A stretch of DNA of 64,000 nucleotides from Psammoneis japonica (Eukaryota): the NCBI GenBank assembly GCA_008632985.1, contig QPGO01000017.1, forward strand, positions 558,001 through 622,000, in the 5' to 3' direction. The first letter of the stretch is position 1. Each line of letters begins with the position of its first letter. A program made the translations under genes and the position numbers. The notes under the pieces were generated by a model. It made no database searches. It had not been told where the DNA came from and worked only from the letters and a program-made list of their open reading frames with translations. Below, piece by piece: positions 22,860-59,900 of the stretch.

Positions 22860-25800
22860 CCGAAAAGGACACACGAAAGATGCGCGCGGCAACGAGGACG
22901 GTGTGCATTTAGTGGATGTGCACGGGCTGTGTCCAGGAGGCGATACGAACGTCGATGCTGGTGTCGGCTTTGTCCTGTTCATGAGGGACGACGTTGACAA
23001 AGCTGAGCTCAAGCGCACGGTGATTCATCGCAAGTTTGTCCATTTACCTTGTGTGCAGAGACAGCGTCACAAGTTGCGAGGCCGCACGGGTGCCTTGGAC
23101 CAAGCACCAATCCACTGAAGACGAGCGCAGCGTTCTTGTCATGGATGGTGACCGTGGACAAATTGATGCAAACACGGTTTCCCCACGTTGGCGGAGGCAA
23201 GGGATGAATCTGAGAATGACGAAAACTCCGGTTGGCGGTTCGATTCCCCTCCGACTTCGCTCGTTCATAAGCTCATCTACTCATGTTACAAGGCTCGGCA
23301 CCTTCCTGTCATTTATGAAAAAAAGGAACTACCCAGTGAGACCACAGCTCCTGCTCCTGTCCTTCCAGTTGATCCTGCTAACCATGAGGTCAGTCGTCTG
23401 CGCCATTCGAATCCGATGTGGCAAGCGAGTGCGGTCAAGGTTGTAGACGAGTTCATGTCTTTTGGTCCGGAGCAAATGCAACAAACCGCGCAGTTAGTTC
23501 CGATTCTGATGCAACGACTCGAGACACACAAACGTCAGCGACTCAAGAACTATGACACTCACCGCAACCACTGGACACTCCAATGGGCAGAACAGAATCT
23601 ACTGCTGATGGCGGCTTTGATGGTCAGCCGCGGCCACATCCTCCCAAACATTGAGTTTCGGAGTGGTGCTACATCCTTGTTACTCCACCCAAAGGCACAG
23701 TCTGAGAAGTGCACTGGAGATCGTCACATGAAGGAAGGTGCGTACGGATTGTGTCACTTCTGCACACCCGTTAGGTCGGGAAAGAATTCAGGTGCCAACA
23801 CAAATTTTGGAGTGCGAGACGATGAGCATCTAAAGTGCTCTAAACTCACCGAATCTAAGCATGTCAACAATGCTCTCTATTCCTCGTATCCATCCAAGGA
23901 AATCGGTCGAGACATGAAAGAGCAAATCAAGTCACAACAGAAAGGATGGTATGAGGATCTTGAGATGGTCACATTCTTTGGGTGGTCACGCAGTGATAAA
24001 GACATCACAAATTTGCTTACCTCAGAAGGCCCTGATGGCTTGTTCCAATGGGATGCCGAGACCTTGAAACACCTAGAAGAGTCTAAAGTCGGTGGTACTC
24101 TTTGGTCCAAGAAATTGGCAATGGTAGGTTATCTGGCTGAGCTTGCCCACGATCTCTGTCTCGGCGAAGACAATATCTCTAACTCCCCTGGATTCGAAAG
24201 CTTCGGGTTGCTTCAGATTCACCTGAACTAGGACCTAGAGACAAATGGTGTCCTCTGTAGCTTTGACAGCTGCTGTCTCACGCGCATTGTCCTCCGGTGC
24301 GAAGCTATCTATACGGGTCAAAAAGAACAATGAACTGCGTTAGTCTCAGTGCTAAAAGGGGATATATAATACACAACTTCTCAATCACACTTACCTTTTG
24401 CACCAAGTTCTAATCAAAAGTAGTGGCACTCTCTACTAGAGAGTTCATCCTACAATAGCGGAGACTTCTGCGCTTAGGCCGGTACCGTCTTCATTACTAT
24501 ATGGCTTCTCGCGCACAGCCGGCACCGTGCTCCCTACTGCTAGTAGAGAGATATCTTTCCTGTGTCTTAGAATAGTAGATCAGTAAGTCATCATTCGAAA
24601 TGGTGAAGTATGCACACACACACTCTACAGTAAGCATACGGTACGTACCGTCCAGAAGCAACAGCTTTTACGCCTACACTCCATCCCACATTTCATCGAA
24701 TAGTCATACATCTCTACTAGATCCGACTAGGAACTGAGAGCTCCAGGATCTGATTTCCCCATATGAGTAAAGAATATCAAAAGATATCTATCATGTAGAA
24801 TATGGGCCTGGAAATGCCACTGCAAGCTTTAACAGCCAACGATAGTCATACTGGAAAATGACAGGCAAAATTAAGATATGAGTGGAACAACGTACACAAT
24901 AACAATCCATTGGGGTTACATATCACAGTATACTCACTAGTGCACCTTTTAGAGGTAGAGCTGAGTCGCCTTACCAATTATTATGCCCCCAAGTACCATC
25001 AGCGGTTCGTGGCATACACGCATTCAAGAGGAGGCGATGAGCCCGCCAACACAAGCATCAACCTCCCCATTTTACCCATTGCAAAGCCTAGAGTCATAGT
25101 TACACCACAAAGATCTCCCAAAATAACGCGGACAATATCATGTCTTAGATAATGATGATAATGCGGTTGAAGGGTAGGTGGAAAGGGTCAAAAAGGACCA
25201 GATACCTGCACGCATGAACGAGACGCACAAAAAAAGGCTCGTGAGGTATGAGAATTTCGTCAAAACGAGTCTAAAAGCCAATCAATCACATTGTACTCAT
25301 AGGATTACCTTTTTTGGACTATGATAAGACTGTCTGACAAATGCCAATGTCGTAAATGTCCTCCAGGCTCCATCGCGTCGTTTTGTTTTCTCGGCATGCA
25401 CTTTCCAAATATTGTGACGGCCGAAAAACGACATGCCATGATTATGCGCCGACCAAGCCCCCAAGAAGGATATCAAGCGCGTCATAAATCCATATTAATA
25501 TACATAATAGGTACACCAAAGGATGTAGAGTGGGATGAGGCATAAGGCTCTCAAACGGATACGCTGTGGTGGTGCAAACGCCGCGAAAAAAACACCAACA
25601 TCACAGATGCAACAATCGACCGCACGAGACGATCAATCCACCTATGAAGCTTTAACAAAGCGCAAACAACATCTTTAGTGAGCATGTAATTGGTGTAAAA
25701 TGAGAAAACAAAGAAAGAACTTACCTCTGTAACGTTGTCGACCATTCAGATGTAGCCCGTACCGTGACGCAATCGAGTCACGAGTCGAGGCACGCAACCG

Positions 25801-25910
25801 TTTATACCGTGTGTCGCAACCGAAGCCCCCCCGGAAACCAAACCAATGTATCAACCTCTTTATAACAACAATAGAAAAAGATCCCCCAAGAAAGATACGT
25901 CAGCCCAACG
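22860..25910 (+). mobile_element. Internally deleted repeat element, probably a DNA transposon; ORF 23188-24231 plus 3' non-coding part; homologous to ~56950-59190 in inverted orientation
   Basis: Clear homology to the minus-strand copy from ~23183 onward; upstream piece has a possible DDE-like motif VLVMDGDRGQIDA; superfamily not established. Confidence 0.6.
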
Positions 25911-26181
25911 AAGTTTGCCATGTCGAGACACATCAAAGTGCAACATGCCGTTTTTTATGCCAAATCGGGAACGTTTGAGTCCAATCGACTTATTCGACTC
26001 ACGTACTTCATCGTGGTGAAATTTCAGTCACGGACGCCGGGAACGTTTGAGGCCAGCGGTAGCCTGTGTCGTCGATACCGGTAGATCTGACGTCCATTAG
26101 CTTCAAAGCTGTACCGGTATCCTCTTTAGGCTTCTTAGGTATCATTGTTGCAGTCCGTTTCTACCTTACTCATCCTTCAGT

Positions 26182-26560
26182 ATGGCGAACCGTATTCTTC
26201 CTCTCGAATTGATCGATAAAGCTATCGGATCGCAGCTGTGGATCTTGATGCGGGGAAAAACAGAGATTGTTGGCACGCTTCGAGGTTTTGATGATTACGT
26301 AAGTGACGGTACATACGTCTTACCAAATCTTTGGTTTTAATCGATGACTCATTTCGTTTTGTTCGATTCGTTTTGTGACTGTGAAGGTAAATCTTGTCCT
26401 GGATGATGCGGTTGAATATGCACCCGACGCAACAAACGAAGGACGAGTCACGAAGACGGAACTAGCAAGCGAAATTTTGCTCAACGGAAATCAGATAGCT
26501 GTGCTAGTTCCCGGGGGAGCAGGGCCACCAGAAGACTCGTTGGTGTCACGCGCCGGATAG
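26182..26560 (+). CDS. LSM5: U6 snRNA-associated Sm-like protein LSm5; exons 26182-26298 and 26387-26560
   Basis: MANRILPLELIDKAIGSQLWILMRGKTEIVGTLRGFDDY/VNLVLDDAVEY...ILLNGNQIAVLVPGG; GTAAGT...AAG intron; exon 1 is absent from the ORF track. Confidence 0.95.
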
Positions 26561-26599
26561 AAGTGACACAGTGTGGGGTCGTGACGATGACCAAATGCG

Positions 26600-28170
26600 A
26601 GGATCCGGACGACTGGGGACAATTTCGATAATCCGCACACAACTGTGTGTCGCGAATCGTCAGTGGTGATGTCATTAAAGTGCTGTAGTAGTGCATGGGA
26701 TACTGCAGTAGCATTTTTAAACGAGCGCGTCGATTCGGATGTAGGGCCCTACTTGTGAAATTGTAGAGCTGCAAATTGGCTGTAACAGCTCTTGCACGTC
26801 TCCAACCATGTTCAAAATACAACTCGCTCTTGGCTTGATGGAGTTCTGTTTCAGCACCGGCCACAAACTCCAACCTGTTTACCTTTACCGCACATACTTC
26901 AAGCTTTAAATTTCATGTTCGCCGTTGCAACCAAGTCGAGAGACAGTTCTACCGTGCGACAGACAACACAGAGCTCTCGTCGACTCTCGGAGGTTGGCAT
27001 GTCCAGGCGTCATGCATTCTCATCACGGCCAACAAATAATGCTTCAGCACGTTTCTCAAACAGACGTCCTGCCAAATTCTTGGTGAATAAATGTAGACCA
27101 CCCATTCATACTCCTCCTAGTCTCTGGATCTTTAGCATGCTCAGAGTCACTCTTGCCACTTGCCAGCCATCTCAAACAAATGATTCTTGCTGCCACCCCA
27201 CTTTGCAGTCAGCTTCAAACACAATCCTTGATTCGGAATCGGCACACAACATTTCATGGTGCACTTGAAAGCCTCAAAATCTGCCGATGCAGCTCCTCCT
27301 ATGAACCTTGACAATTCCCCAACTGAACTCAACAGCTCTGGGCATGTCCAGCATGTCATGTGCCGCAATTTTCCGACTTCAGAACGGCATTTCTTCTGTT
27401 CAGTCTTGCACAAAAGATTCCATGCTTTGCCACTCATGAGTGTAGATCCTCCTGCAGCTGGTGCAGTTGGCACCTTTCCTTCCAGCAACTCAAACTCATC
27501 TTCAAAACTCTGACTCACAGCTGGCTGAGTCAATTTTGCACTTCTGCTCTCTCGATCAATGTCAATCTTGTCAAACCCCAGACATTCTTTGAGGTCTCCA
27601 ATCTCATTGCAATTAAACAAAATTGTCATCTGCTTCTTGGCTTCTCAAACACAGTGCTTTGGTCCACAAATGAAGATGTTTTCAACCCTTGTCAACCACA
27701 TGACCAATCTGCCAACAAGCCACTTGAGTTGCAAACAGGGGTCATCAGCCTCGCTTCTCTCATGTTTCAGTTTTTTGAGAGCCTTGTTGATTTCCCGCCA
27801 GAGTGCAATGAATGTGTCATTTGCAATGATGACAATGTGACATCCCCTGAACAGAACCCTTCATGTCCTTGTGGCATTTCCATGTGCAGTTGTTTGCCCT
27901 CTGCAAATGGGCCCATGCATGATGCTCCTTGCATGTTCAACAACTGACTTGGCCCAGTGCAGTGCCCCAAGCAACGGCCCCAACAATGCAGTCCATGCAG
28001 CAATGTAATTTACAACTGGCACAGACATTTTAAATCCTTGCAGTGCTCTCCTTTCACTTGTTTGAATTCACAAGCATTCGTGTGAACCCCAAATTCTCCA
28101 CTCATGGCTTTCTGTTTTCCATCACCCAAGTCAAACTTGGAATTCTTGCATCCTCCAGGATGCCCTTGCA
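26600..28170 (-). mobile_element. Ty1/Copia remnant: RT-RNaseH 3' part and probable 3' LTR
   Basis: Decayed RT (QLLNMQGASCMGPFAEGKQLHMEMPQG; FDKIDIDRESRSAKLTQP) and pol C-terminus LFTKNLAGRLFEKRAEALFVG. Confidence 0.75.
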
Positions 28171-29539
28171 AGCACAGCAAACACTTGTGAGACACTCTTC
28201 TCTAACTGCAGAAACACTGGCTTGGAATCCCAAGGGTTTCTTCCTTGAGACCTTCTTGTCAAAAGCTGCAGGCAAGTGCTGTGTCACATTTTGTGGTGCA
28301 CCGTGTGTGTTGAAATGTCCCAAATTGACAATGCCGACATCTCACCCATGTGCAAGCCCTGCCAAAACTGCAGAAACACACCAAAGCATGAACGTTCAAT
28401 GGAGTGAATGGTGCCAGCAATGACACAACAGCGTCATGTCCTCAACAAACCACAGCATTGTTTGTGCCCAAAAAATGTCCGCAAAATAAAAGCCCTCTTC
28501 TGCCAGGTGATTTTTGGGCCTTGGCAGCAAAGCAACAACAAGTGCAACATGTCTGCAATGACAACAATGGGCAGCACTGACAAGAACAAGTTTCTAGATT
28601 GCAGCACTTTGTGAACAAGTGAACAAAAAAGTCACATTAATTTGTGCAGAAAAACTCCATGGGGCTGCATCTGCAGGTGTCTGACAAAAGATTGGAGCTT
28701 GTTGTGTGGTTGTTGCCACTGCAAAATTGGTGGGCAGTGGATGTGAACTTTGCTTTGCATTCCACAAAAGAGCGCTGTTCCAGTTCCAGCGCATGAGAGC
28801 AACAAACACACACACGCCTTTCCCTTGAATCATGTCAGAGAATTTGAATGGGTGCAAAGACATGGGCACCTTGTGATGGTGAAGTCAAGCACAAAATGGC
28901 TTTGGTGGAGTGTGAGGACAGTTTGAAGGACAATGTGCTCAGTGCAGCAGAGACAACAAGTTCTCACACCCACAAAAACAAAACAAGGTGAGGGAAATGT
29001 GACCTGGTTGGAAAATGGATTGATCCTGGGCTTTTTTGCTCTCCTGAGCTGCAAATGGGTCAAGTGTTGAGCTCATTGGACACCCACTGCAGTGAGACAA
29101 AAGGAGAGTGCCACAACCATCACTTCCAACCACACTGTGAAAAGACATTGCTTGCAGCTTGAAAGCAAAGCCATCTTTTGACATTGCATGATGGCAGGTG
29201 CAACTCAGGGGTGCTCTCAGCATCAGAGATCCCACACAGCAAGACCAGTGCTGCTGCAGCCATTGCTTTCTTCAAACACAGGGTGCTGCTTTGGCTTGTG
29301 GGTGGCAGGCTGCACTGTGCCATTGTGATTGCCCCAACATCTTGCCCTGCAAAGCACCCCAGCCACTGTCCACTGTGCTGGCTTTCAACACCCACAATTG
29401 TCGAAAGCAAGGAAAATAAAAAAAAGCAGAGCTCGTGGGCTGTCCACAATGTTTTTGCACCAAGGATGCCATTTTGTGCAAGGGCTGAAATCACTCTAAA
29501 TGGAAAAAATGCTCTTGGTTTGCAGGCCAGGCATCATGC

Positions 29540-31540
29540 AGATGATGCCCACCCTGCTGGAAGCAGACATGGGACAACAAGATTGTGCAAAGACAAGGAC
29601 AAAATTGACCAAGATGACTGAAAAGCTGCTTGAGCAAACAAGCTCTGTGCATTTGTTCCAGATGCCCTGCACTTGCCATTTTCCTTGGTTCATTGCTGCC
29701 CTTCCTGGTGCACAGACAAGGTCATTCCATGTCACCACTCTTGCCTTGTCATTTCCATGTTTCCATTCTTCCACACACCTGAAATGAGCAAAGGTTTGGT
29801 TCATTCTTGACTGCCAAGGGGCATCTTGAGCAAATGACACAGAACAATGTGCCGGTGACAACCGTTGAACAACATGGAGGTGGGTTGGTTGTGATGGGTG
29901 GGACTCTTGCCACATCGAGCACAGAAGACAAGATGACAAATGACAAAAGAAAGAAGAGGCAATGCAATGACAAAATGAATGACAGGGACAAAATTTTTTT
30001 GGAGAACTGCTGCAAGAACACCTTGTTCACACAACACCAGTTTCTGAATGAAAGGCCATCACCAACAGTGATGGCAGGGTTGCAAAGATTGTGCTGCACA
30101 AAATCAACATGCCTCAAAAAAAGAGAGCATGATTTTGGGAAATGTCGAAGGACAAGGCATGAAGGCAGATGACAAAAAAGAGGAACAATGCAAGTGGGGA
30201 ACTCAAGAAAGGATTCTTCCACAAGCACTGCATCAAAATGGAGTGTGCACAATGTGGGGCAATGGAAGATGGCTCACACACACTGCTTGGTGTTTTGCAA
30301 GTGAACAGGGCATGTGGATCATGAGAAGAGAAACACACAAGCAGATGACAATGCCAAGATGCCATCTCTGGACAAGATGCTAATAAAGGGGGAGAAAGCA
30401 TGAAGGCCCACAGCTGTTTCACCCTGCACTTCCTGCCAGCAGTTGTGGGAAAGATGATGTGGAAGAAGCACTGGCTCATGTCATGACATTGCTTGAACAA
30501 GTTGGCATCTGCGAGCAAAAAGTCATTTGGCCTGCTGGTTTTGGAGAACAGCTGGGGTGAGTGGACACACATCATGCATGGCAAAACAAAGGAAGAGTTG
30601 AGGGAGGAGGCAAAGAAGGAGGGGCTCATTCTGGAGGCAAAGCACAGCAATGGGGAGGGTGATCAAGCAAAAAGGAGTCAGGGTTGGAACAACGCAGGAC
30701 CAGAAAGGTGCAAAGAGTTGGGAAAAACAACTCACAAGCAGAGATTGAACAAGAACACAGATGAGTGCAACAAAGTTTGGTCAAGGCAGTTCTGGGAGTG
30801 CATGGATGGGACAGAAGAGACCCAAGACAATGATGGTGATCAGTTGCAAGCAGGAGACAATGAAGAGGAAGACATCAAGAGAACTTGGATTTGTGGCTCC
30901 CAGAGGTGCCACAACAGGCAGCTGTTTAAATCGACATTTGGCAACAATTTGGCAAAATGAAATCCAACAGAATCAACAGACCAGGCAAATTAAAAAGGAC
31001 AAGAACAAAACATGGATGCGGTGAGGGAGGGCACATGAGAAATGCAACAAGAGCACTAGAGTTGTTTGTGCTGTGGGACCAACATTGCAAACAAGGCACC
31101 CAAATTGTCAATGAAGCACATGGGTGTTGCTCCCTCTGTTAAATGTGGCAAAACCCCAAATGCAATGAGCCCAAAACCCACATTAAAAATGAAAGACAGA
31201 CCCAAATTGTTCAATTGCCCCCCAGGTGAATTGTTCTCCCCTCTCTGATGCCTTGCTGGCAGCAGACATGGGACAACAAGATTGCACAAAGACAAGGACA
31301 AAGTTGACCAAGATGACTGAAAAGCCACATGAACAAACAAGCTCTGTGCATTTGTTCCAGATGCCCATGCATGGGCCATTCTCCTTGGTTCATTGCTGCC
31401 CTTCCTGGTGCATGGACAAGGTCACTCCAGCATGTCACCACTTGCCTTGTCATTTCCATGTTTCCATTCTTCCACACACCTGAAATGAGCTGGGGTTTGG
31501 TTCATTCTTGATTGCCAAGGGTCATCTTGAGCAAATGCAA
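29540..31540. repeat. ~290 bp direct repeats (~29540-29835 and ~31245-31535) flanking a degenerate ORF
   Basis: gcagacatgggacaacaagattg...gctctgtgcatttgttccagatgccc...catttccatgtttccattcttccacacacctgaaatgagc occurs in both. Confidence 0.85.
29930..30900 (+). pseudogene. Degenerate TE-associated ORF, homologous to 61164-62395
   Basis: ASKKSFGLLVLENSWGEW...GWNNAGPERCKEL versus ASDEAPALLTLENCWKSW...SWKDAGIKRFNEL. Confidence 0.55.
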
Positions 31541-33014
31541 ACAGAGTCACATTGTTGTTGCAGCACCAGCTGTGCTGATGCCTGGCACACATTTTGTTCT
31601 GGAGAGTGCAAGAGTCCCAGGACAGGACCCCCACACTCTTTCTTGAACCTTGGTGCTTTAACAAAGACTGGCTGCCATGTCACTTCAAGTCATGTGGTTG
31701 AGCTGGGAGGGAGTTTGACAAATGAGAACAAGAAACAAGCGGCAGCAAACAAATCATCATTTGAATGATTTGTTCTGCCAATCTGGTGGAACACCCAACA
31801 CATTGCCAGGCTCCTTGTCTGCTTCAAAGACTTTCTCCCCCACCGGAGCAACTTCCTCCTCAGCAATGTGGTCATCATCAAAAACAGCAGAAGCAGGGCT
31901 TGAAAGGGCTCCTCAACTTCTTTCACTGGGACAATGATGGTTGCAACATTTGATGCCCTCAAACACACAGATTTTGGTTCCAATCAAGCCCAGCAGCAGT
32001 GCCACAGCCAACTGCTGATCATTTGGGATGGAAATGGCATGGGTGGAACATGGGTGCATCAAAAAATGCAGTTGGCAGCTGCATGGGACAGGGCTGGAAG
32101 AGTGTTGCCAATGTGAGCATGAGAGGCACTTGGCCTGGTCTCCATTTGACACAACCATGACCAGCTCATGCTTTGACAACAACAGCAAAGGGAGCCACAA
32201 ATTGCACACAGGAGTGCAGATGACAAAAATGCCCAGTGCATGGTTCATGCAACAACACAGGGGCAACTGCAGCAGTTCCACAAGCTCAGCCACAAAGAAG
32301 AGCAGCAAGGTCATTGACCTTCACACCATGGCGGCAGTGCAAAAAACAGGCAGCAACACCAATTGGCTTGATGGTGAGGGGGAAATGAAACACAAAAAAG
32401 CTGCAGCAAGCAAAATGAAAGCAGCAACTTTGCAGAGACCCCAACAACAAAAGATGCCAACTCCTTGATCATGCAAACAATCTTTTGCACACAGCAGCAG
32501 CCCACAAGAACACACACAAGTCCCAAAGGAAGGTGCCAACTCATCTGTGGCTCTGCTTGACATGAAATGTGCACAGCATGGGAAGTTCACAGTGTGGCCA
32601 GTGCAACAATGTGGCCATGGCAGAGGCAGTGTCATTGGCAAGCAAAGACAGATTGCATGCTTCAATTCAACAAAAGTTGGGTTTTCTTGGTTCATGAAGA
32701 TGGGGCAGAAATGCACTGGAGAAGCCTGCAGAAAACCCAACAACCCCCTCCTGCTCACAATCATCAATTTTTTGTGGGGCGTTGGTGGTGGATTCTTTGC
32801 ACAGGGTCACCCACAGGAGGCTCTGTGTGAAAGCAGCCAAAGACAAAGGTGCTTGTTGGATTTGTCCACAGCAAACTCTGAAATTGCCTTCAATGTTGGC
32901 TTGCTTTGAGTGGGCCCCATGAATTTTCCTGAAGGAGGGCTCACTGTGACATGACACACATTTTTGCAAAAAACATGGTGCACCTTTGAAGCTGTGCAAA
33001 AAAGATCCTCTCCC

Positions 33015-33159
<145 letters not shown>

Positions 33160-33169
33160 AGACCTGCCA

Positions 33170-33930: not shown

Positions 33931-34164
33931 AAGGGAAGTTTGACGCAAAAAGGGCAGGTGTCCTGCCAGGCAAAGCCTGTCATCGTGCGGCGCGCCAAAA
34001 ATTCTTGCTGCGGTTGACGGACGTGCGGCACCGCAGGCACCGCAAGCGCCAAAGCAACAGCAACAAGCAATGACAACAGCACAACAGCGGGTCTTCGTTG
34101 TTGCAACCTTGTGAAGTGCAGAGCTTGTCTTTGTTGTGTCTACTCCCAGTTGTGTGTGTGTGCG

Positions 34165-48565: not shown

Positions 48566-49699
48566 CCATCTCATTTCGAAAAATGCCACACGTCTATCTT
48601 GTAACGACAACAAGCGTAGGTTGGAAGCAATCGTCAAGGGAAATAGCTTTTCACGAGCGCTCTTGTTGATGTGCCAACACTGCCCCTTCTCCCGTAAGAG
48701 GCTTTCTTGTTTCACGCCGTCATCTGACCAAGTCAACTTGCACTGTAGTCTCACTTTTGCAATGTGCACCAAGCTTGGCTGCGCAGACCCGGCGATAACA
48801 ATTCGAAACATAGGACAGTAATTGCACCGTTGTTTGTTCAACTTTGCCTTGCAACATGCCGCACACGGTGGGTCATCAACTGCATGTCCTCCAAGCGGCG
48901 ATTTCCACTGGCTGGAGATTTTATCTTTTCGCTCCAGAGCAACCGACTCGTCTCTTCTTAAAAATGTGCTGTCTGCTGTCTAGCTAGAAGAATCCGTAAT
49001 GGGCACTGAAGCTCCCGCATCATTTTCTTTTAAAGACCTTTGTGCGAACTGCCTCATTTAAGACCAGATGTTTCGAACGTCGACACAAACGCTGCTCGGT
49101 GGTGGTGTGATGCGTGATTGTCGGAGGGATTGAGCTCGAATTATCGCAAAAGCACGATCAACGTTCATTCCGCGCTTTTTCTGCTGTTTCACCTGACGCC
49201 AACTGGCCCAGCTCTGAGCAACAGTTTCTTTTGCAGCCGAACGACGAATTTGTAAGATCGAAGAATCGGCAGGTGCGTGTGCAGTGTGTTGTCGGAGACA
49301 GCTGGCTTGAAACGAATAAGACGTCATGGTCGATTTTCGGGCTGGGGGTGATGCGATGTGATGTGCGGCCTTCGAGCGTCCGTCAGGCGGCGTGGAGCGT
49401 CCGACCTGCCTCCGTAAAATCCGGGTATCTTTCTGCTGAGGTGTGCGCATTTTGTGCGCATTCTGTGCGCATTTTGTGCGCAGGCCTTGCACGCGGCATT
49501 TTGATGTGTTTCAGGACAAACCTGTTGTCATGCGTGGGACTCCTTCTTCAGCTGGAAGACAACAGTTCTTAAATGCAGACAATTTGTGACAGACACACTC
49601 ACTCATTCAGCTTGCGATCAGCAGCTGGCTGGGCTTGGCCCCGCAGCCTTGCTGCCTGGGCGGCGCAGCTGGCAGCTGTGCACTTCCCGCTGGGTGTCT

Positions 49700-51320
49700 T
49701 GCCTTGAAGCTCTTCACAAGTTTTTTCTTGACCAAGCTCTTGCAATGTTTCCTGGTTTTGGTGCTCATCTTCTGTGCTGCAGAGCGCGGTGCTGCCGTGC
49801 TCTTCACCTTTCAGAGGGCTGCCGGACGGGCTCCAGTCCTGGGCGGGACTTTTTGTGACATTGGGCCCGCAGAATTCTACGTGCGAGCTCCGCATTACAA
49901 AAATTTAATCAATGGATGCTTTTGTCTTCAACATCAAATGAACACCAAGTTTGTGGCACAAGTGTGGCCATTGCTGCTTGACGTTTTTGCAAACGCGCCT
50001 GCCCTGCCCCATTCTCAAGACATTTGCGAATGGCGTGGAAGAAAAAAATGTCAAAAGTTGTTGGACGGATCACTCAACAAGTGCACCATAAAATGACACC
50101 AAACGTGGTGCGATCCAAAAAACTCTCGATGTCACAGTTCAGCGGTGCGAGGTCCCACCTGACGTGTTCCAGCTGCACGTAACCCAAATCGTGCACAAAA
50201 ACGACATTTGCGCGATTTTTGCGCGGTCTCTGACTTGCGAACAGTTTTTCACCACCAAAAGCACAGATTTGCTCAAATTCTAATGTTTTGCAACACTGAC
50301 AAGACTCGTGTGAGTGTTGCAAAATCATTGTCATTGTGCCATCAATGTTTTTCATTGCGACAAACGAGTCGCAACACAACGGATGATTTTCGGCGAAATC
50401 ATTGCCGTCATTTGGATGTCAACTGAGTGTGTCTTTCTACGATGCTTTTCAGTGCATTTGCTGCTTACAAAGAAATTTCTGTGTGAAGAGTGCGGATGTG
50501 CAATCAGTGCTCAGTCTGCTGAGGAAGTTTGTGATGCATGTGTCATGAGGAACTCGACACCCAACAAAAAACTGTTTGATTCTTCACAATCATGCATGCT
50601 CTAGATGCCTGTAAAAGCCAATCTGCCTGAGCATTTTACATGAAAATGCTGCATGCACTAAGAGATGCATGATTTATGTTCAAAGTCGATTGTCGTTTTG
50701 TGTGTCACCTGGGACTGGAACACGTCACCTGGAGCTGGAACGCATCGCCGGCAGCCCTCGTGCAGCTGGGGGCTGCAGATGTGGAGACCAGCCTTGCGCT
50801 GGAGAGCAGCACAGCCAAGCTTGTGGGGCCAATGCTTTCTGTCTTTGTTCAGTCTCATGTGGCACCTCTTGCCCAAATGCCATGCTTGGTGATGTCCTCT
50901 GCCAGTGCAAATTTTTTGGCACCTGGGTTGCCAGCCAATGAAGGCCAAACGACGACGTTTTGTGATGTTTGGCCCGCAGAATTCTGCGTGCGAGCTCTGC
51001 AGTGCAAGAATCTAATCAATGGATGTTTTTGTCTTCAACATCAAATGCAACAGCCAAGTTTGTGGCACATTTGTGCCTGTCCACACTCGAAGTTTTCGGT
51101 TGTCCGCCTGCCCTGCGCCATTCTAAAGACATTTGCAAATGGCGCAGAAGAAAAAAATGTTAAAAGTTGTTGAATGGATCGCTCAACAATTGTGCTGCAA
51201 AATGATGCAAAATTCCACCAAAGTCACGTAGAAATGTGTGTGCGCGACATGCGGCACGATTCAAAAAACCATCCATGTCACAGTTCAGCAGTGCAAGGTC
51301 CCACCCAGAGCTGGAACATG
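49700..51320. repeat. Diverged direct repeat (~49700-50170 and ~50830-51320)
   Basis: ggcccgcagaattct(a/g)cgtgcgagctc...aatcaatggatg.ttttgtcttcaacatcaaatg occurs in both. Confidence 0.85.
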
Positions 51321-51329
51321 TCAAACAGC

Positions 51330-52620
51330 CCTCATCTGCTTTGACATGATTGCAACTTTGTGCGCCCACCACCGCACGTGCTCCCCACAAGAATGACACT
51401 CACACAAATCCCAGAGCACTTGGTCAGAATTTTGGCATTTTTTGGGCAAGTGCACAAAACATGTGCACAGCCAACGGCATTTTGAGGCCTTTTTCTGACC
51501 ATCTTGGCTGGTGTGAAGATCCAAGGCTGGCCCTGTCTACCCCCCCAGTCAATTGTTTTGGATTGTGCCCACCCTTCTTGTCCAATGGAGTCTGTGACAG
51601 AGCTGCAAAGCAAGCACTCTTGTACACTCACAATCGCAGCAACTCTGAGCTCCCCTCTGGAGCCCACAAGGACACCACACACAAAGCAAAACACGAAGTG
51701 GCCAAACGGAAAGCAAGGACACATGAGGCAACACTCAGATTGATTTTCAGCTCTTTGCCCAAGAACAACAAGGCCAGAGCTGTCAAGAATGATGCCAAAG
51801 CAGGAGCATGGCTGTTGCGCACAACCCTTTGATGCTGAGCTGCACAGAGCTCTTGTGCAAACAGCTCTGCAATGTTTTTGTTTGTGGTGCAGCAAGGCCT
51901 TGCCTGATCTCCTTGAGCACTGCAGTGGATGTGGGCACAAGCTCTTTGCAAACCATGCCCTTCAATGTGGGGAGGGCATGGCTGGGTTGTTGGGCGGCAT
52001 GACAAAGTGAGCGGCAACCCAAGTGGCCCAGTTGGAGAGGCTTGCAGGCTGTCCTGTGCGAATGACAAACCTGCCATTGAGAACCCTGCTGTTGGTCATG
52101 TCATCTTGGCAAGCCCAAGCAACTTGGGCAATCCATCAAGTGACAAAAGTTCCAAAGTGCCCAAGGATGGCAACTGTGGAGATGTTCCAGCATGCAGACT
52201 CTGGGGCAGAAGGGCAGACATGGTCATGGTTGTGGATGTCTGAGCTCCAGGCATGGGAGCAGGCAAGATTGTGCCCACCCAAGGCACTGGGGCAAGCTCC
52301 AGCAGACCATGAACAAGATGAAAAGCACAAGCAATGAGAGAAAAAGTGCAAGCACCTCAATGAGAGAAAAAGTGCAAGCACCAAGCACCTCGTGCCCCGC
52401 CTTGAGCAACGTTGCCACTTTTCTCCTGCCCTTTGCAGCACCAGGATGCCCGGCAGAGAGAGGCCAGAGAGGTGCTCTGAACAATTGCTTCAAGGATGCT
52501 TGACAAGCAACAAAAGCTGTGCTTGGAGGTGTGTGGCCACGCTGATGCAAGAATGAGCACCGCACAATGGCAAGGGCAGCCCTGCAGCATTGCCGCTGCC
52601 CAGTGGGATCATGCACTCCC
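51330..52620 (+). mobile_element. Degenerate 3' part of an RLE-type (CRE-like) non-LTR retrotransposon
   Basis: AGAWL, Zn-knuckle CSGCGHKLFANHALQC, then GDVPACRLWGRRADMVMVVDV resembling the restriction-like endonuclease region. Confidence 0.6.
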
Positions 52621-53749
52621 TCATCTCAGAGCTGATGGTTTTTGCTCAGAGCCACTTGTGTTTCCCAGGGGGTTTCAAATCAAGTGTTTGCACCAGACAT
52701 CTGATGCATGAGAAATTTTCAATGTTTGCTGGCACAGACCATGCAGATTGCATGCCAGAGATGGTCCAATGCCCACGCTGTCATGCTGAACGCCATTTTT
52801 GCAATCTGTCAAACAAGCTTGTTCACATTTTGTGTCAGCAAGAATTGTGGATTTGTGGTTGTCCAAAGTGTGCCAAAAAATTGATTGTGCAATGACTCAA
52901 GGCAGGTTGGTGCTGTTTCAATTGTCACAGGTGCTTTCACCAATTTTCCTGCTTCTTTTTTGTTTTCACAAATCTTTGTCCATTTCAGAAAAGTCAAGGG
53001 CATGGAGCATTTTTGTGGTGATCTAAGTGCAATCACGTTGCTGTGGGCAGGAGCTGCAATCCTTGCCAGCATGCACTGGGAATGAGTGCATGCAACGGTG
53101 TCAGCTTGTGCAGGAGACAGGTCAGCAGGTCAGCACTGTCTCTTGTGGGCTTCTGCTGAACAATGGGGAAAAAGGGGCCAAGACAGGAGATTACAGAAAA
53201 GGTCAACCCGCTTGACCGACACTTCAACATGTTTGTGCTGCACAGCTTGCATTGGCTGCTCATCTCATTTTGTTCCCAGTTCTTGAGCTGACCAACATCA
53301 GAGTCAGCATTTTGACTTCATTGTCATGCGTCACCCACTGTGTGTGCTCAACAATGCAGCTGGAGAGTCTTCTCCTTTCTGCCATCAGATGCAGCTGCTG
53401 CTGAGCAAGAAACATCTCCTCCTCAACCGTGCAAAGAAATGCTTCAGCTTTGTGAACCAGCTGCAATTGTGGGTGCAGCAGCAGAGGAAAGAAACTTGGA
53501 TTCAGCCAATTGGAGCTTCGCGATGAAAATTTGAGCTTCGCACACAAAAACACGCAATTGTCTCCGAATTTGTAGTGAGCAGTCTTACAGTGCACCGGAC
53601 GCGCACGTGACGCTCCAAAAAATTTGCTGGGGGAGCTCTGAAGAGACACGGATTTTTGCTTTCACTGCACGCAATGATCGCAACATCGCAGCCGTGATGC
53701 AACACAACACCGCATGCAACGCGCATCGAGTCAATTGTGCCTTGACAGC

Positions 53750-56015
53750 ATGGAGCCGGTGACAGTGTCTTCATTGAAAGATGATCCAAGGAGGTGGGGA
53801 GAAAATGATGTGTGCGTTTGCAGCTGGGGTGATGCACACCATGAGATTCAGAAACAATTTTGTGCTCTTGCCATTGCTGGAGAGTGTGAACCTCACGCTG
53901 GTTGGTGCAAGCGACTGCAGCTTTTGGGAGACTCAGAGAAACAGTTGAAATGGAGAGGTGCTGTGCTGTTGAACCTTGGCACATCTGAAGATTTGGTTGC
54001 CAACATGGAATCGGTCCCGGCAGCGAGACAGCATTGGACGGCTAGACAGTTGGAGTTTTTTGACAAAGGCAAGAAAGCATTCACGCCCCTCCCTGCAACA
54101 GAAATGAAGGCACTTGCTGTCACCTTTGACCAGCAGTTTAGCATTGCAAAGAAAGGAAAGAAACACTGTTTTCATTGCCCCAACGTGTCAAAGGAATCAC
54201 TTCTTGCCGAGACAGCAAGGTCGCCGCGCGATTGCCACAAGGAAGCACGTGATGAGCAAGTGGCATTTGCAAAGCTTGGCAATTGTCATCAGGCTTTCAA
54301 GGAGCAACACACTTTCTGATTTTGTCAATGAAAATGAAGGCTCCAACAAGGAAAATGACAAACCAGCACCGGTGACACCAAATGCATCATTGCAGGGAAA
54401 GGATTTTGCAGTGTCAAATGAAGCTCAGGCCAAGGTGAAGTGCCTGAAGGGAAGCAAGCGGACAGCAAGCTGCAGGAAGCGCAAAGCCAGCAATCCTCCT
54501 CCTCCTTCTGAACCTTCATTTGTTGCTGATGAGGTGGAAGATTTCTTGACAAATTTTCTTGACAGCAACTCGGCGTGTTGGCACCAGCTGACGTCAAGAG
54601 AATGGCATGCCAACAATCCCGAAGCAGCCAAGGACTTGTTTGGATTTCAGTCTCTTGATGAGGCAAAGCGGTGCATGTCTGCATTCTTTGCCGATGTGCC
54701 TGTGCATGTTCCAACAATCAAGTTTGTTGCCAAAGAGAAGAAGCTCATGTACGACCCACCGGATCCCACTGCGTTTGAACAGGTGCTAATTGCGAAATGC
54801 TTTGTGCACCACTGTCCAGTCGGAAAGACAACGGGATGGGTTTTTGGGGTGGTTCCGACTGCAGCGTTGAAGCATCTGAACAAGTGGGCCCCATGTTGGG
54901 GCAAGCATGGCGAGTTTCTTTCTATCTTGCCGACACCTCCCGACCATTTTGACAAGGAGCTGCTGGATGAATTTGTTGAGCAGAATCTTGACAAAACTGC
55001 TGTGTTGCTGGATGGCAAGGACACACCAACAGACACCATGCGGAAGGATGATGCAGCACATCGTAAACAAAACAGCAACAAGATGGGCTGCTCTGCATTT
55101 CATTTTATGAATTTTGCATCAGCGTGCACATTGTCGCATGAGCACACAAGGGCGCATGGGGCTTGAGTTGATGAGAAATGTCTTGTGGAGGCAATCGGTT
55201 CATGCCAAAAGGAGAAAGCTCCCATTCATGAGTGGAAAGACCATGCCAAAGAAAACAAGGTTCAAAAAGAGCTCAGGCACTGGATGGTGCGGGATGACTT
55301 GGTGGTGGGGAAGGAGCTGGAGGAAGCAGTGGTGGCGACAGATTCCCACAAGGCTCAGGAGACGGATGATGCAAACAACAGATGGGCCAGTTCTAGAGTT
55401 GTTGAGTTTTCAGATTTTGATTTTGGGCCCAAGAGTGATGACAGCAGCAGTGAGAGTGACCAGAGTGGCCCCAGCAACACCGACTACAATTCGGACTCGG
55501 AAAGCATCGCAACGGCCGCCTCCTCCGCTGCAGATGATCTCAATCCGAAAGATTGTCAACACATTGTGGATCACATTGACAAGTGGTTCAATGAGTGGCT
55601 GGAAATTGTTTGCATGGATGGAAAGCTGTGTGAAGCTGGCTTGGACAAGGTCACGCCAATGCTGAGCAAGAATTGCAACCAAATGAAGGCCATGAGCAAG
55701 AAGGCGCTGCATTTGTTGCCCCAGAACTCTCCGGAGAAATTGCTGCAGCAACTTGAGCTGTTTGAGAGACTGCACAAGTTGCATGACCAAAACACAATTA
55801 AAAGGTGCATCCTGAGTGCACACTTGGAAATGATGAAAGAGCTCCAGTGGGATTTGTCATGCTGGCTTGGCAGCGAGTTGAAACCAGGAGGTCGCGTTTT
55901 GGACAACAATGGCGAGGCTCCCAGGGATGCATTTTTGCGCCTGTGCAAGATGCCACCAAATGAAGATGGTCTTGGAGACAAGGGGTTTGAGAAAACAGAT
56001 GTTTGTTTTGACTGA
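53750..56015 (+). mobile_element. PIF/Harbinger-ISL2EU-like (DDE_Tnp_4) transposase pseudogene, 3'-truncated
   Basis: HTH-like TAFEQVLIAKCF...VFGV, then VLLDGKD...KQNSNKM...HEHTRAHGA*VDE and LGDKGF; stops and frameshifts. Confidence 0.65.
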
Positions 56016-56215
56016 AGAGCGGTCAATGAGCTCTTTGGCGGATGTGTTGGATCCGACATCACACACTGTGCCGCAACATCCTTGTGACAGTTCTTGTGCA
56101 GCCAAACTGAAATGTTGACCCCAAGTCTCTTTCCTTGGGCGTCACTGAAGGGAATGGAGGGTTGAGCATTGACAGGGCCAAGCGTCTTGAGCCACAGACC
56201 TCCGACACCCATCAT
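56012..56215 (-). pseudogene. N-terminal fragment of an XPG/FEN1/Exo1-family nuclease
   Basis: MGVGGLWLKTLGP...GKRLGVNISVWLH fits the XPG_N pattern MG(V/I).GL...GK...(V/I)D.S.WL. Confidence 0.65.
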
Positions 56216-56949
56216 GCGTGATGAGTTGTGTCATGGTCGCTGCGTTGCAAATCTTGTGTGAAGCAAGGAAAAAATCGGCAATTTTTTCATGTTCATGGCC
56301 GATTGAAGGCAAAGGGAAAAAAGGAGGGGATTCCAACAGTTGAACACACACACACAATTTGACCATCATCAGAGGCCGCAATGTGGTGTTGTTCACTTTC
56401 CTTTGGAAAAATCGGAACATTTGATTTAATGAAAGCATGGCATTGTCAGTTAAGTTCAATTTCAAATGCAATGGTCAACTTGAATTTGTTGTCACCTTTT
56501 TATGTCTGCAATTGTCGCCGTTTTCTTTTGAATTAAATTCGCCAAAGACTGTCAACACATCTTTTGTTGTTGAACAATGCATTTTGTGTTGATTGGTTTT
56601 TCACATGTTTGTTGAAACGTTAACTTTGACAGTGCTTTTCAACAGCTCCACCGCAGTCTTGCATCACCACAGACAATGGCATTTCTTGCACACCCAAGTC
56701 GGCCACGTGATCACCTGGCTCATCATTTCCACCTGCACCCACCAGTTTTCCAGTCAGCAGCTCCCTGCCTGCCTTTTGGCACCCACTCCACATGCGCAAT
56801 TCTCCACCCATTTCATGACAGCACACCCTCTCCCCAAAAAGCATTTGACAAGAGGGTGTGCTGTTGTGATTCCTGCACATTCTACGTGAATCGGCATCTG
56901 ACTGTTGGCCATGGCGTCTAACGACTTTACCCCGTCTCACGATGCATGG

Positions 56950-59900
56950 ATCGTTGGGTCGATGCATCTTTCATTTGGGATCTTTTTCTGGTGTTGTTAT
57001 GAAGAGGTTGACACATTGGTTTGGTTTTCTGGGGGGATTTGGTTTTGACACACGGTGCAAACGGTGACGTGCCTTGACTCGTGACTCGATTGCTGCAGTG
57101 CACGTGTAAACACATGAATGGTCGACAATGTCGCGACGGCAAGTTCTCTTTGTGTTTTCTCAATTTACATCGTTTTCCTGTTCACTGAAGATCATTGTTG
57201 TTTTTTGTTACAGCATGTAAGGTCGATTGATCGTCTCGTACGGTCGATTGTTGCATCTGTGATGTTGGTGTCTTTCTCATGGCGTTTGCACCACCACAGC
57301 ATGTCCGTTTGGGAGCCTCATGCTTCATCTCACTCTTTGTCCTTTGGTGCATCTATTTGCACCATTTGTTTGCACTCGTGACGAGCTTGGTGTGTTTTTG
57401 GATGTCTTGGTCGGCTCGCAATTACAGCATGTCGTTTTTCGGCGACAACAATTTCTTGACAGTGCACACCTTCAGAATGAAACGATGCGAATGAGCATCG
57501 AGGACACCTGTGGCGCTGACATTTGTCGTGCACTCGCACCATAAACCAAAGTAGCTATGGCTGTGAGCATGTTGTGATTGTTTGAGTTTTGAACTCGTTT
57601 TGACGAAACTCGCATGCCTCGCTAGTGTTTTTTGGTGTGTCCACTTCAAAGTGCAGGCATGTGGTCTATGACAACCCTTTCTTCCTGCTCTGCAAAGGCA
57701 TTGTCATCACCATCTAAGACATTATGTTGCCCACGCTATTTTGGGAGATCTTGGCAGTGTGACGACTTGTCTGGGCTTTGCAATGGGTGAAATGGGGAGG
57801 TGGAGGCTTGCATGGCCGGGCTCCTCGCCTGCTCTTGCATGCGTTGACACAGCGAACCGCTGGTGGCACTTGGCGCCAGGAAATTTGGCAGGGCGACTCA
57901 GAACTGACTGTGAAAGGTGCCCCAGTGAGCACACTGTGACATGCAACCCCAATGGATTGTTGTTGTGTACGTTGTTCCACTCACATTTTCATTTTGCATG
58001 TCACTTTCCAGTGTGACTGTCGTTGACCGTTAAAGCTTGCAGTGGCATTTCCAGGCCCACATTCTACATGATCAACATGTTTTGATGCTCTTTGCTCACA
58101 TGGGGAAATCAGATCCTGGAGTGCTCAGTTCCTAGTTGGATCTAGATTAGAGATGTGTGGCTGTTTGATGAAATGTGGGATGGAGTGTGGGCGCAAGCTC
58201 TGTTGCTTCTGGATGGCACGCACCACATGCGCACTGTAGAGTGTGTGTGTGCACCATTTCAAATGATGCTTGCCGATCTGCCATTCAATGCACAGGAAAG
58301 ACATTTCTCTAGCAGAAGTGGGGAGCACGGTGCCGGCAGTGCGTGAAAAGAAACACAGTGATGAAGACGGTGCCGGCCTGAGCACAGAAGTCTAAAGAAT
58401 GTGACCATCTCAAGATCCTCATGCCATCCTTTCTGTTGTGACTTGATTTGCTCTTTCATGTCTCGATCGATTTCCTTGGATGGACATGAGGAATGGAGAG
58501 CATTGTTGATGTGCTTTGATTCGGTGAGCTTGGAGCACTTTAGATGCTCATCGTCTCGCACTCCAAAATTTGCATTGGCACCTGAATTCTTTCCCGACCT
58601 AGCGGGTGTGCAGAAGTGACACAATCCACAGGCACCTTCCTTCATGCGATGATCTCCAGTGCACTTCTCAGACTCTGCCTTTGGTTGGAGCAACAAGGAT
58701 GTAGCACCACTCCAAAACTCAATGTTTGGGAGGACATGGCCGCGGCTGACCATCATGGCCACCATCAGCGGTAGATTCTGTTCTGCCCATTGGAGTGTCC
58801 AGTGGTTGCGTGAGTGTCACAGTTCTTGAGTCGCTGACGTTTGTGTGTCTTGAGTCGTTGCATCAGAATCGGAACCAACTGAGCGGTTTGTTGCATTTGC
58901 TCCGGACCAAAAGACATGAAATCGTCTGCAACCTTGACTGCACTTGCTTGCCACATCGGATTCTCACAGAGAGGATGCCCAACCTCATGGTCAGCAGGAT
59001 CAACTGGAAGGACAGGAGCAGGAGCTGTGGTCTCACTGGGCAGTTCCTTTTTTTCACAAATGACAGGAAGGCGCCGAGCCTTGTAACGTGAGTGGATGAG
59101 CTTATGAACGAGTGAAGTCGGTGGGGAATGGAACCGCCTGCCGGAGTTTTCGTCATTCTCAGATTCATCCCTTGCCTCCGCCAACATGCCTTTGTTTGCA
59201 CAAAACTTTGACGGCTTGTCTTTCATTGATCGGAAGAAGCGTGCATTCACAAATGACTGCAACTGTGAAACGGCAAGTTTTGCGTACATGTCGATCAATG
59301 CCTGTGCCACAATTGGTCTGTCTGACTCATCCATAAGTTGAAGACTCTCGTCGCTGCTCATCATGTCCAGCATTTTAGATTCCGCTGCCACAGCTTCATC
59401 ATGTGCTTTGTTGTGCGCTGCAATTTCACGGACAAGTTTTGCCTGCTTCTCGGCCCGCAGGCAATCCTGTCGTTCCTTCCGGGCTGCCCTTTGACCAGCA
59501 GAGTTAAGAAGTTTGGCATGCTGCAGGGGTTCTTGTGAAACACCGGCATCACACCGGTGTGGGATCACGGTCCTTGGGGAACTCGAGTTCATCAAAAACT
59601 GTTTCGGGGATGTGACCCCCGTTGTCATCCCACGCTTTCATCAAGGTGGGGAAGGATCGGAGGCAAAGATCGCATTCTTCTTGGGAGACTTGCCGTTTGA
59701 CAGCAGACATGACGGATTCAAAATCAGGACAACACAGAGTTTTCTGGTCAATGACACCAGAGACCACGAATCCCTTCAGAATCTTCTTCCATTGTAACGA
59801 CTGAGTCAGGATTGACGGAAGCTTGGTGAGCAAGTCGACGATTGTATCCTTGTCCTTTCCAAGCTGAAGGGGAGTCTTTTCCAGGGCTCTTGTAGCCTCC

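Follow-up and report, generated by a model that had tools for sequence, protein, structure and literature searches.

Why has one copy of an inverted duplicate lost most of its TpA dinucleotides, which of the two copies has changed, and does the change follow from pairing of the copies or from the place where each of them lies? These questions are raised by a stretch of 64,000 nucleotides of Psammoneis japonica, a member of the diatom lineage (assembly GCA_008632985.1, contig QPGO01000017.1, positions 558,001 to 622,000 of the forward strand), which is referred to below as the window. A repeat occurs there at 23 kb on the plus strand (copy A) and again at 57-59 kb on the minus strand (copy B). 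A preliminary description of this DNA proposed that the inequality between the copies fits a position-dependent process better than pairing of the kind known from repeat-induced point mutation (RIP). This view is supported by the present study: very probably, a multi-copy element is represented in decayed form by copy B, which lies in a zone where two transition processes have run near to completion, and copy A lies in an island that both have left unaffected. The decay is regional, directional and context-specific.

The analysis covered this single 64 kb window. Zones were delimited by a two-state segmentation on the occurrence of TA, alongside 1 kb profiles of the observed/expected ratio (o/e) of dinucleotides. 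The contigs designated X1 and X2 were built from the reads of sequencing runs of one sample, and those of X2 were read as spliced transcripts solely since they skip 86-103 b with GT..AG or CT..AC ends at breaks of open reading frames (ORFs). There is no X2 contig over 17693-19384 and 27281-32900, and X3 provided no contig; missing cover is not evidence of silence.

Self-comparison by BLAST resolved the duplicate into two blocks, 23184-23979 against 59188-58394 (796 columns, 92.5% identity) and 24462-25911 against 58393-56951 (1458 columns, 78.0% identity). The parts of the copies and the ORF that they share are the following.

23184..23979, plus strand: left part of copy A, 20 TA in 796 b, TpA partly retained
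23980..24461, plus strand: stretch of 482 b found in A and absent from B, containing the 3′ end of ORF A
24462..25911, plus strand: right part of copy A, non-coding, with normal TpA (101 TA in 1450 b)
58394..59188, minus strand: left part of copy B, 6 TA in 795 b, with a 1-base deletion that breaks the frame
56951..58393, minus strand: right part of copy B, 24 TA in 1443 b
23188..24231, plus strand: ORF A, 347 codons
58262..59637, minus strand: counterpart of ORF A in B, split between the frames 58768-59637 and 58262-58816 and extending 5′ past the homology with A

The inequality was first described in a pair of 40-mers, 24463-24502 and the reverse complement of 58353-58392. The six differences reported there were found again: all five TpA of A are changed in B (three to CA, two to TG), as is one of the three CpG (to TG). 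Likewise, seven of the eight Tyr of A in the shared ORF are His (three) or Cys (four) in B, as described earlier, over 264 shared codons. The count per dinucleotide that the preliminary description had called for, run over the A/B alignment, gave 79 sites with TA in A and CA or TG in B and two with the reverse (binomial p 2.7e-21). According to this strict table, the 119 aligned TA of A appear in B as TA (22), CA (37), TG (42), CG (2) or another dinucleotide (16); the counts of 37 CA and 42 TG agree with the earlier statement that both strands were changed. A looser count using the context of B alone gives 101 versus 19. The right part contributes most of these sites, 66 of its 99 aligned TA being CA or TG in B. 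Going from A to B, T became C at 40/118 positions followed by A and at 29/385 followed by any other base (Fisher p 1.9e-11), and A became G at 44/118 positions preceded by T and at 35/571 preceded by any other base (Fisher p 3.4e-17). For CG the figures are 30 sites with CA or TG in B and 13 with the reverse (p 0.014), and CA is exchanged for TG between the copies at 14 sites.

The direction of the change was sought among sequences from outside the window. ORF A was aligned with the two fragments of B and with the 27 best-scoring outside relatives, very long ones excluded. The preliminary description had raised the opposite possibility, that outside copies might show TG and CA to be ancestral; the relatives have Tyr at three of three informative codons, so TA is ancestral there.

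Tyr186 of A: Cys (TGT) in B; Tyr in 26 of 26 relatives
Tyr231 of A: His (CAT) in B; Tyr in 25 of 27 relatives
Tyr234 of A: Cys in B; Tyr in 22 of 27 relatives and Phe in 5
Tyr255 of A: His in B; relatives have Phe (20), Trp (3), Arg (2) or His (2), which is not decisive
Tyr31, Tyr43 and Tyr122 of A: His, Cys and Cys in B; outside the conserved part and uninformative

As the relatives hold Tyr at the informative codons, the comparison of sequences indicates that TpA was lost by B and not gained by A, which does not agree with RIP. The unequal change noted earlier is thus a loss in B, by the 79 sites against two and by the Tyr of the outside relatives. The composition of the proteins points the same way. 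Tyr makes up 2.6% of ORF A, the family median is 2.9% (150 relatives) and the fragments of B have 1.0% and 0%; His and Cys together reach 13% in the second fragment of B against a family median of 5.1%. No relative free of Tyr, which would have been a sign of the process elsewhere, was found among the 150 from other organisms, the lowest Tyr fraction being 1.0%.

It is hardly credible that the change ran in the classical RIP direction, with CA and TG ancestral and TpA gained by A through C>T at CpA on both strands. That direction would account for the TA o/e of 1.02 at 24001-25000 in the right part of A, which is the maximum of the window, and for positions 24849-24850, where a spliced X2 contig, a transcribed relative, shares CA with B and A has TA. 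The Tyr of the outside relatives contradicts it, and so does the family-typical Tyr content of A, which B does not share. RIP would have converted Gln and Trp codons to stops, but none of the 18 Gln or Trp codons of B is a stop in A, and ORF A is without stops; of the 23 His or Cys codons of B, seven are Tyr in A (Fisher 0.012). The RIP indices of copy A are ordinary (TpA/ApT 0.43-0.83), with (CA+TG)/(AC+GT) of 1.13-1.27 as in the normal DNA of the window, and those of copy B are outlying (0.12-0.28 and 1.49-1.70, respectively). Two further objections, from other pairs of copies and from the DNA around B, are given below.

Loss in copy B being the direction, the next question is whether B was hit for its pairing with A or for its place. 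The window falls into normal and TpA-depleted DNA as follows.

1-17663; 23268-27133; 34433-36172; 46688-49059: normal DNA, TA o/e 0.57-0.73, CG o/e 0.94-1.08
23268..27133: normal island of 3.9 kb containing copy A and the LSM5 gene, TA o/e 0.73, CG 0.94
17664..23267: depleted zone 1, TA o/e 0.07, CG o/e 0.55, with a kinase-domain remnant and a 101-b tandem repeat
27134..34432: depleted zone 2, TA o/e 0.05, CG 0.20, with a TA-free run of 1620 b
36173..46687: depleted zone 3, TA o/e 0.07, CG 0.22, with a decayed LSM5 copy
49060..63999: depleted zone 4, 14.9 kb, TA o/e 0.12, CG 0.51, containing copy B and reaching the end of the window

The four depleted zones, of 5.6-14.9 kb each, sum to 38.4 kb, and CA and TG are in excess throughout them (o/e 1.55-1.89). 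The longest TA-free run (31659-33279, 1620 b) compares with one of 202 b in the first 17.7 kb. The left edge of zone 1 (17664) is sharp within tens of bases and lies about 220 b beyond the point where the X2 contigs of the PSP1 gene end. Around B, the depleted zone of 14.9 kb far exceeds the repeat of 2.2 kb, and its composition continues for kilobases past the repeat, which also speaks against the RIP direction; copy B is itself somewhat less depleted than its surroundings. The preference for a position-dependent process over RIP-style pairing therefore stands, since each copy shares the composition of its neighbourhood and the LSM5 gene is untouched. The loss of TpA from B, and of part of its CpG, is supported as an effect of its location, or of its time there, and not of pairing with A.

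The composition of the zones fits transitions in place. The total frequency of pyrimidine-purine (YpR) steps is 0.2424 in normal and 0.2412 in depleted DNA, and the loss of TA and CG (0.0727) is about matched by the gain of CA and TG (0.0714), with zone-wide frequencies of 0.1061 for CA and 0.1069 for TG. G+C is nearly equal in the two classes because the TpA process raises it and the CpG process lowers it; as the two cancel in base composition, the zones are invisible in G+C plots.

The two losses are partly independent. CG o/e falls to 0.20-0.55 in the zones from 0.94-1.08 in normal DNA, but at 22001-23000 the TA o/e is 0.07 and the CG o/e is 1.03, so that TpA is lost there without loss of CpG. 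The tandem repeat mentioned above lies in this interval (22305-22791; unit of 101 b, 4.8 copies, 90% matches). It has almost no TA, is rich in CpG, and is the clearest place of TpA loss with CpG intact.

It is very improbable that the pattern is an artefact in which modified bases or processing caused TA and CG to be read regionally as CA and TG. The sequencing platform is not on record, the runs are of one sample that is possibly the source of the assembly, and both of the lost dinucleotides give the same products, all of which would suit such an origin. Depleted DNA is carried by X1 contigs, however: 26032-29664, a single contig that bridges normal and depleted DNA (3 other letters), 31461-32841 (4 other letters) and two shorter ones (none). 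This agreement shows no more than that reads and assembly are equal at depleted stretches. The CA facing TG at the same site between copies, the frameshift of B and the 482 b deletion are marks of heritable divergence; besides, the losses of TA and CG are uncoupled in places, and the pattern depends on the flanking base, as shown below.

Age instead of place offers a more serious competitor to the reading of A as lying in an island left unaffected, although we regard it as rather unlikely. According to this explanation, the whole block of 17.7-64 kb is targeted and copy A is a recent insertion not yet hit. The left edge of the normal island lies at most 84 b from the left end of A. Single places of A are overlapped by three to ten different X1 contigs, and positions at which every one of these contigs differs are few, as in a young family. 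The island, however, also holds the LSM5 gene with normal intron and flanks, where there is no sign of a young insertion, and A is partly decayed itself, having 14 CA/TG swaps with B and a CA at 24148, where ten of ten contigs have TA. For copy A taken by itself, a protected place and a younger copy are not separable.

The place of B as the source of its decay can be weighed on other duplicates of the window, which serve as internal controls. The sequences concerned are the following.

26182..26560, plus strand: LSM5 gene, with exon 26182-26298, GT..AG intron 26299-26386, and exon 26387-26557 followed by the stop
43769..44100, plus strand: decayed LSM5 copy in a depleted zone, which reads MANGGPLPLELTNKAVRSQLWMLM*
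19899..20555, minus strand: protein-kinase domain remnant inside zone 1, with stops upstream

Both exons of the LSM5 gene match solved LSm5 chains (6ppn_E at E 5.5e-12, 3jcm_f at E 4.4e-07), and an X2 contig without any difference to the window skips the intron, whose ends are GT..AG, and joins 26298 to 26387. Exons and intron alike have normal TpA and CpG; as the intron is as normal as the exons, protein selection cannot explain the contrast between gene and copy. When the locus (26100-27100) was compared with the decayed copy, none of its 37 TA was kept and 34 were CA or TG, with one change of the reverse kind; one of 51 CG was kept and 40 were CA or TG, with none of the reverse kind. TA went to CA at 15 sites and to TG at 19. 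That the gene is untouched while its copy is decayed contradicts the symmetric damage of RIP.

For the kinase remnant, the comparison is with a relative present in X1 and X2 contigs. Contig-versus-window differences number 367, of which 40 were listed; among the 20 listed between 19811 and 20348, CA or TG of the window faces TA of the relative at 12 and CG of the relative at 4, with one of the reverse kind (p 2.7e-4). The LSM5 and kinase pairs lose TA in the depleted-zone copy, opposite to the RIP direction. One member of each duplicate pair was hit, and the other was spared. As a negative control, two copies that both lie in normal islands kept 32 of 42 TA and changed symmetrically (7 vs 8). 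Pairs with both copies in depleted DNA have CA/TG swaps at 55/385 sites, compared with 11/161 for AC/GT swaps in the same alignments (p 0.014), and at 17721-18870 the window has CA opposite TG of the reads at five adjacent double differences. Such CA facing TG indicates that the same ancestral TA or CG was resolved differently after the copies had separated. As for transcripts, the X2 contigs without any difference to the window fall in normal DNA (16001-17440 and 26387-27097); those placed on zone 1 depart from the window in 83 letters and in 28, which indicates that they derive from a relative.

The LSM5 gene and its neighbours are carried by a direct segmental duplication, 26099-37661 and 43330-48564, in blocks of 71-88% identity. 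Its first copy is split by about 5 kb (28.2-33.3 kb). This duplication offers several more pairs for the study of decay.

What the process recognises can be read from the TA that remain in the 38.4 kb of depleted and 25.6 kb of normal zones. In depleted versus normal DNA there are 39 vs 32 TTAA, 46 vs 90 CTAA, 15 vs 64 CTAG, 9 vs 76 GTAC, 3 vs 175 ATAC and 1 vs 89 ATAT. ATAT, ATAC and ATAG are thus nearly gone and TTAA is hardly depleted, and the ratios fit the product of one factor per flank. Counted per adenine in the two polarised pairs, A>G occurred at 43/83 sites with C as the next base, at 36/68 with T, at 20/61 with A and at 18/58 with G; in sum this is 79/151 for a following pyrimidine against 38/119 for a following purine (p 8.6e-4). 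The base two positions upstream of the adenine has no effect. The process uses both strands, and a TA is preferred when its next base is a pyrimidine. TA being self-complementary, these counts equally describe a preference for T>C where a purine precedes.

This double reading leaves room for thymine chemistry. The thymine of 5′-TA-3′ could be oxidised to a base that mispairs with G and gives T>C; 5-hydroxymethyluracil and 5-formyluracil, made by enzymes of the TET/JBP type, are such bases. The palindromic TA makes T>C and A>G on opposite strands indistinguishable, and the flank rule is equally a preference for purine-T-A. Nothing found here favours this chemistry above deamination of adenine, and it is considered improbable.

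The preferred account, in which B decayed in a zone of two processes and A kept the normal sequence of the family, would work as follows. The first process converts TpA to CpA or TpG, that is, A>G within 5′-TA-3′ on either strand, fastest before a pyrimidine; the second is the familiar decay of CpG to TpG or CpA. Copy A, sitting in a short island spared by both, has kept its sequence, and may have escaped because it is transcribed, because it is younger, or for both reasons. The TpA process may be an enzyme-driven editing of silent or unwanted DNA, and 5-methylcytosine that deaminates in this silenced chromatin may account for the loss of CpG. The simplest chemistry would turn adenine by deamination into hypoxanthine, which is read as G; this was proposed for the chlorarachniophyte Bigelowiella natans. 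Among 15 mutation-accumulation lines of that alga, 231 of 302 new mutations fell in two silent integrated viral regions (Mettrop et al. 2026, bioRxiv 10.64898/2026.01.13.699255). According to the main text of this preprint, all but one of the viral-region mutations were A>G/T>C, all of these lay at TpA, and the rate was about 6e-7 per site per generation (bioRxiv 10.64898/2026.01.13.699255). The authors suggest a defence by a DNA adenine deaminase resembling ADAT2 and describe, as the long-term trace, TpA depletion with a gain of CpA and TpG in clustered windows (bioRxiv 10.64898/2026.01.13.699255).

No dedicated enzyme would be needed if the change were real but passive, a bias of silent DNA dependent on chromatin or repair, such as a poorly repaired lesion at TpA. 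Several observations agree with this: no enzyme has been identified, the zones hold copies of host genes and not recognisable foreign DNA, and the TpA loss is accompanied by CpG decay, which is a passive process. The extreme specificity (ATAT 1 vs 89, TTAA spared), the near saturation of TA loss and the zone edges, sharp within tens of bases, argue for a dedicated activity. So does the signature in B. natans, which, by the account in the preprint, appeared in some lines only, at about 1000 times the background, and looks regulated (bioRxiv 10.64898/2026.01.13.699255). It seems that a passive origin is not probable, though it deserves slightly more credit than thymine chemistry.

Taken further, the results suggest a pathway that we put forward tentatively, as a possibility that may well turn out otherwise. 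In diatoms, editing aimed by chromatin would deaminate adenine in 5′-TA-Y-3′ on both strands of silenced DNA and, together with the decay of methylated CpG, would erase unwanted copies of genes and mobile elements inside a chromosome that is normal elsewhere, as an adenine-based eukaryotic counterpart of RIP. Since a rhizarian alga has this signature in active form, the pathway would be common to the stramenopiles, alveolates and Rhizaria (SAR) or be older.

Several points weigh against the proposed reading. The window is the only one seen, and the X1 and X2 runs are possibly the assembly's own data, so that they are not independent support. The direct polarisation of A and B rests on three Tyr codons, and the right part, which is non-coding and for which there is no outgroup, accounts for 66 of the 79 events. 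At 23046 the reads have TG where A has TA; together with positions 24849-24850 and the high TA o/e of 24001-25000, this suggests that some gain of TA in copy A may have occurred as well. Copy A has CpG decay of its own, and its residues 139 and 151 favour the state of B. The idea of a defence against foreign DNA is unsupported here, the known targets being copies of host-type genes. The zones are not all junk either, as the conserved ORF pair 34018-34851 and 45637-46617 lies partly in TA-poor DNA. Finally, both the deaminase and its targeting rule are inferred.

The two ORFs of this pair are paralogous (277 and 326 codons), and both start with a near-identical basic stretch, MPP.KKQNRSQASIDKRNATKREQRRLANEEKERKAL... 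Their DNA is about 80% identical, with 29 shared CpG and TA almost absent, and no Pfam match was found for them. They may be live genes in, or at the edge of, TpA-poor DNA.

The history of the duplicate itself is composite. Transversions between A and B number 15 in 795 aligned bases of the left part and 126 in 1440 of the right part, a contrast which indicates that the two parts differ in age or history. A spliced X2 contig (24126-24308 joined to 24395-24530) spans the right edge of the 482 b stretch; this points to a deletion in B and not an insertion in A. The 5′ part of the ORF is present in B and missing in A, and its 3′ part is present in A and missing in B, so both copies are evidently fragments of a longer element. 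Terminal repeats or long terminal repeats were not found around copy A, and the 31-base block common to A and B had no exact match in metagenome or viral contig collections.

At each of the places listed, from 3 to 10 different X1 contigs overlap the right part of A, and X2 contigs cover it as well. The X2 contigs over it (24126-25900, minus strand) are spliced at four CT..AC introns of 86-103 b. No long reading frame was found in this spliced minus-strand RNA over the right part, either in A or in B; the RNA may be non-coding, or it may belong to the untranslated region of a multi-copy element. Between 24461 and 26152 the summed word depth exceeds that of the adjoining DNA about 20-fold; depth is not copy number, and distinct contigs were used instead.

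ORF A belongs to a sizeable family. An exhaustive HMMER search among 1.84 billion representatives gave 391 relatives at E≤1e-3 (best 3.6e-29), which are unnamed and come from marine eukaryote transcriptomes and metagenomes; a word-based protein search gave no match, and a protein atlas no usable one. The AlphaFold2 (AF2) model of the protein has a predicted local distance difference test (pLDDT) score of 83.5, and Foldseek found no match to it at E≤1e-3. With VIA-align, the model matched the catalytic domain of I-TevI (1ln0_A) at rank 2, with Z 5.4 and a root-mean-square deviation of 2.5 Å over 88 of 92 residues; T4 EndoII (Z 5.3), Hpy188I (4.8) and the N-domain of UvrC (3.8) followed, all of these Z values being below 8 and middling. 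The Pfam family GIY-YIG (PF01541) did not rise above threshold, two of 30 family members matching it with a best E of 0.18, and the profile of the ORF A family found nothing below E 0.63 among solved chains. The nearly invariant columns of the family are G184, Y186, R196, S197, G198, R210, H214, E318 and N329. We take their order to be that of the GIY-YIG catalytic residues (G-x-Y, x-x-G, Arg, His/Tyr, Glu, Asn), and their equation with residues of I-TevI is likewise our assumption. The modelled C-terminal domain of ORF A thus resembles a GIY-YIG nuclease inconclusively, as a lead and not as membership. If ORF A were such a nuclease, the change of Tyr186 to Cys in B would have taken away a catalytic tyrosine.

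Beyond the duplicates, the window encodes housekeeping genes: Nop56/58, a THOC3-like WD40 protein, PSP1 and LSM5. The best named relatives of the Nop ORF are those of Asterionellopsis glacialis (83%), Pseudo-nitzschia pungens (80%) and Stephanodiscus triporus (76%), all diatoms, with unnamed matches at 84-86%. The PSP1-domain gene consists of the ORFs 14378-16285 and 16333-17259, joined by an 86 b GT..AG intron (16276-16361) according to an X2 contig, and every intron seen in the window is 86-103 b long. Rfam and tRNA scans of the window gave no match. In the depleted zones, where TAA and TAG are lost and only TGA stops are left, long chance ORFs abound; beyond 17 kb there are 208 stop-to-stop frames of at least 90 codons. 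A Pfam search on 204 ORFs of 17-64 kb found no viral or transposon domain, just the kinase domain and a few sub-threshold chance matches; viral or transposon domains may be hidden by the heavy mutation. The sole N of the window, at 33015 inside a depleted zone, directly precedes a (CA)72 microsatellite (33015-33159) and is probably an assembly gap at the simple repeat.

A mutator confined to TpA has been reported once before, in the chlorarachniophyte preprint of 2026, where the long-term trace, as described there, is mild. The window presents the same signature at saturation in the diatom lineage, an ecologically weighty group with genetic tools. Three pairs of a hit and a spared copy serve as internal controls, two of them polarised by outside sequences. 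The TpA process is separable from CpG decay, its sharp zone edges can be compared with chromatin marks, and the flank rule (TA followed by a pyrimidine, TTAA spared) is a constraint on any candidate enzyme. For annotation, the zones conceal pseudogenes and mobile elements from homology searches, Tyr turning into His or Cys and TAA and TAG stops vanishing, and they generate long false ORFs.

A report of TpA loss in diatoms was not found in the literature searched, most subscription journals being outside its coverage. Mutation accumulation in Phaeodactylum tricornutum gave a GC>AT bias, with TpA unmentioned in the portion of that article used here (PMC6604790). The decay of CpG through 5-methylcytosine in methylated, silenced DNA would explain the CpG half of the pattern only; diatoms methylate transposons at CpG (PMC9998398). 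It resembles the present case in the change of CG to TG or CA on both strands, regionally and in silent-looking DNA. The TpA loss differs in being deeper, in being present where CpG is intact (22-23 kb) and in having no known link to cytosine methylation. APOBEC enzymes are comparable as host mutators directed at invading DNA that leave context-specific clusters of transitions in genomic copies. Their chemistry is that of cytosine, however, their contexts are others, and they act on single-stranded replication intermediates and not on chromosomal zones.

The deaminases ADAR, ADAT and TadA share with the proposed process the conversion of A to I, read as G. The U33-A34 of tRNA is the substrate of ADAT, and the 3′ preference of ADAR is G. 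According to the Discussion of the preprint on B. natans, ADAR prefers U or T before the edited A (bioRxiv 10.64898/2026.01.13.699255). Unlike this family, whose members are RNA enzymes as a rule, the process described here prefers a 3′ pyrimidine and affects both DNA strands equally. ADAR-like RNA editing fixed by retrotransposition, which would mark one strand only, was rejected as a source of the pattern, both strands being equal and the 3′ pyrimidine being favoured (79/151 vs 38/119).

Fungal RIP changes C to T at CpA, by which TpA is made, hits both copies of a duplicate, and depends on an enzyme of the RID/DNMT4 type and on a sexual phase. It is alike in that transitions crowd at a single dinucleotide on either strand, repeated genes are ruined and homology is erased. 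The differences are that TpA is destroyed here and made in RIP, that one copy per pair is spared (34 vs 1 and 40 vs 0 for LSM5, 79 vs 2 for A and B), and that the depleted zones extend beyond the ends of repeats. RIP of the fungal type was rejected, as its direction, its damage to both copies and its confinement to the duplicate were all absent.

The closest counterpart is the TpA mutator of B. natans, as far as the main text of that preprint describes it. The organisms are distant, a rhizarian there and a diatom lineage here, and the identified targets differ, being integrated viral DNA there and, here, a multi-copy ORF together with duplicates of genes of host type. The depletion is far deeper in the window, with TA o/e of 0.05-0.12 compared with a Rho of 0.45 in the viral region. 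Strong CpG decay accompanies it, CpG being unmentioned in that main text, and a rule for the 3′ neighbour is seen here, none being given there. The target in B. natans is said to be transcriptionally silent, and the depleted zones are silent-looking. Both systems share A>G/T>C transitions concentrated at TpA, on both strands and clustered by region.

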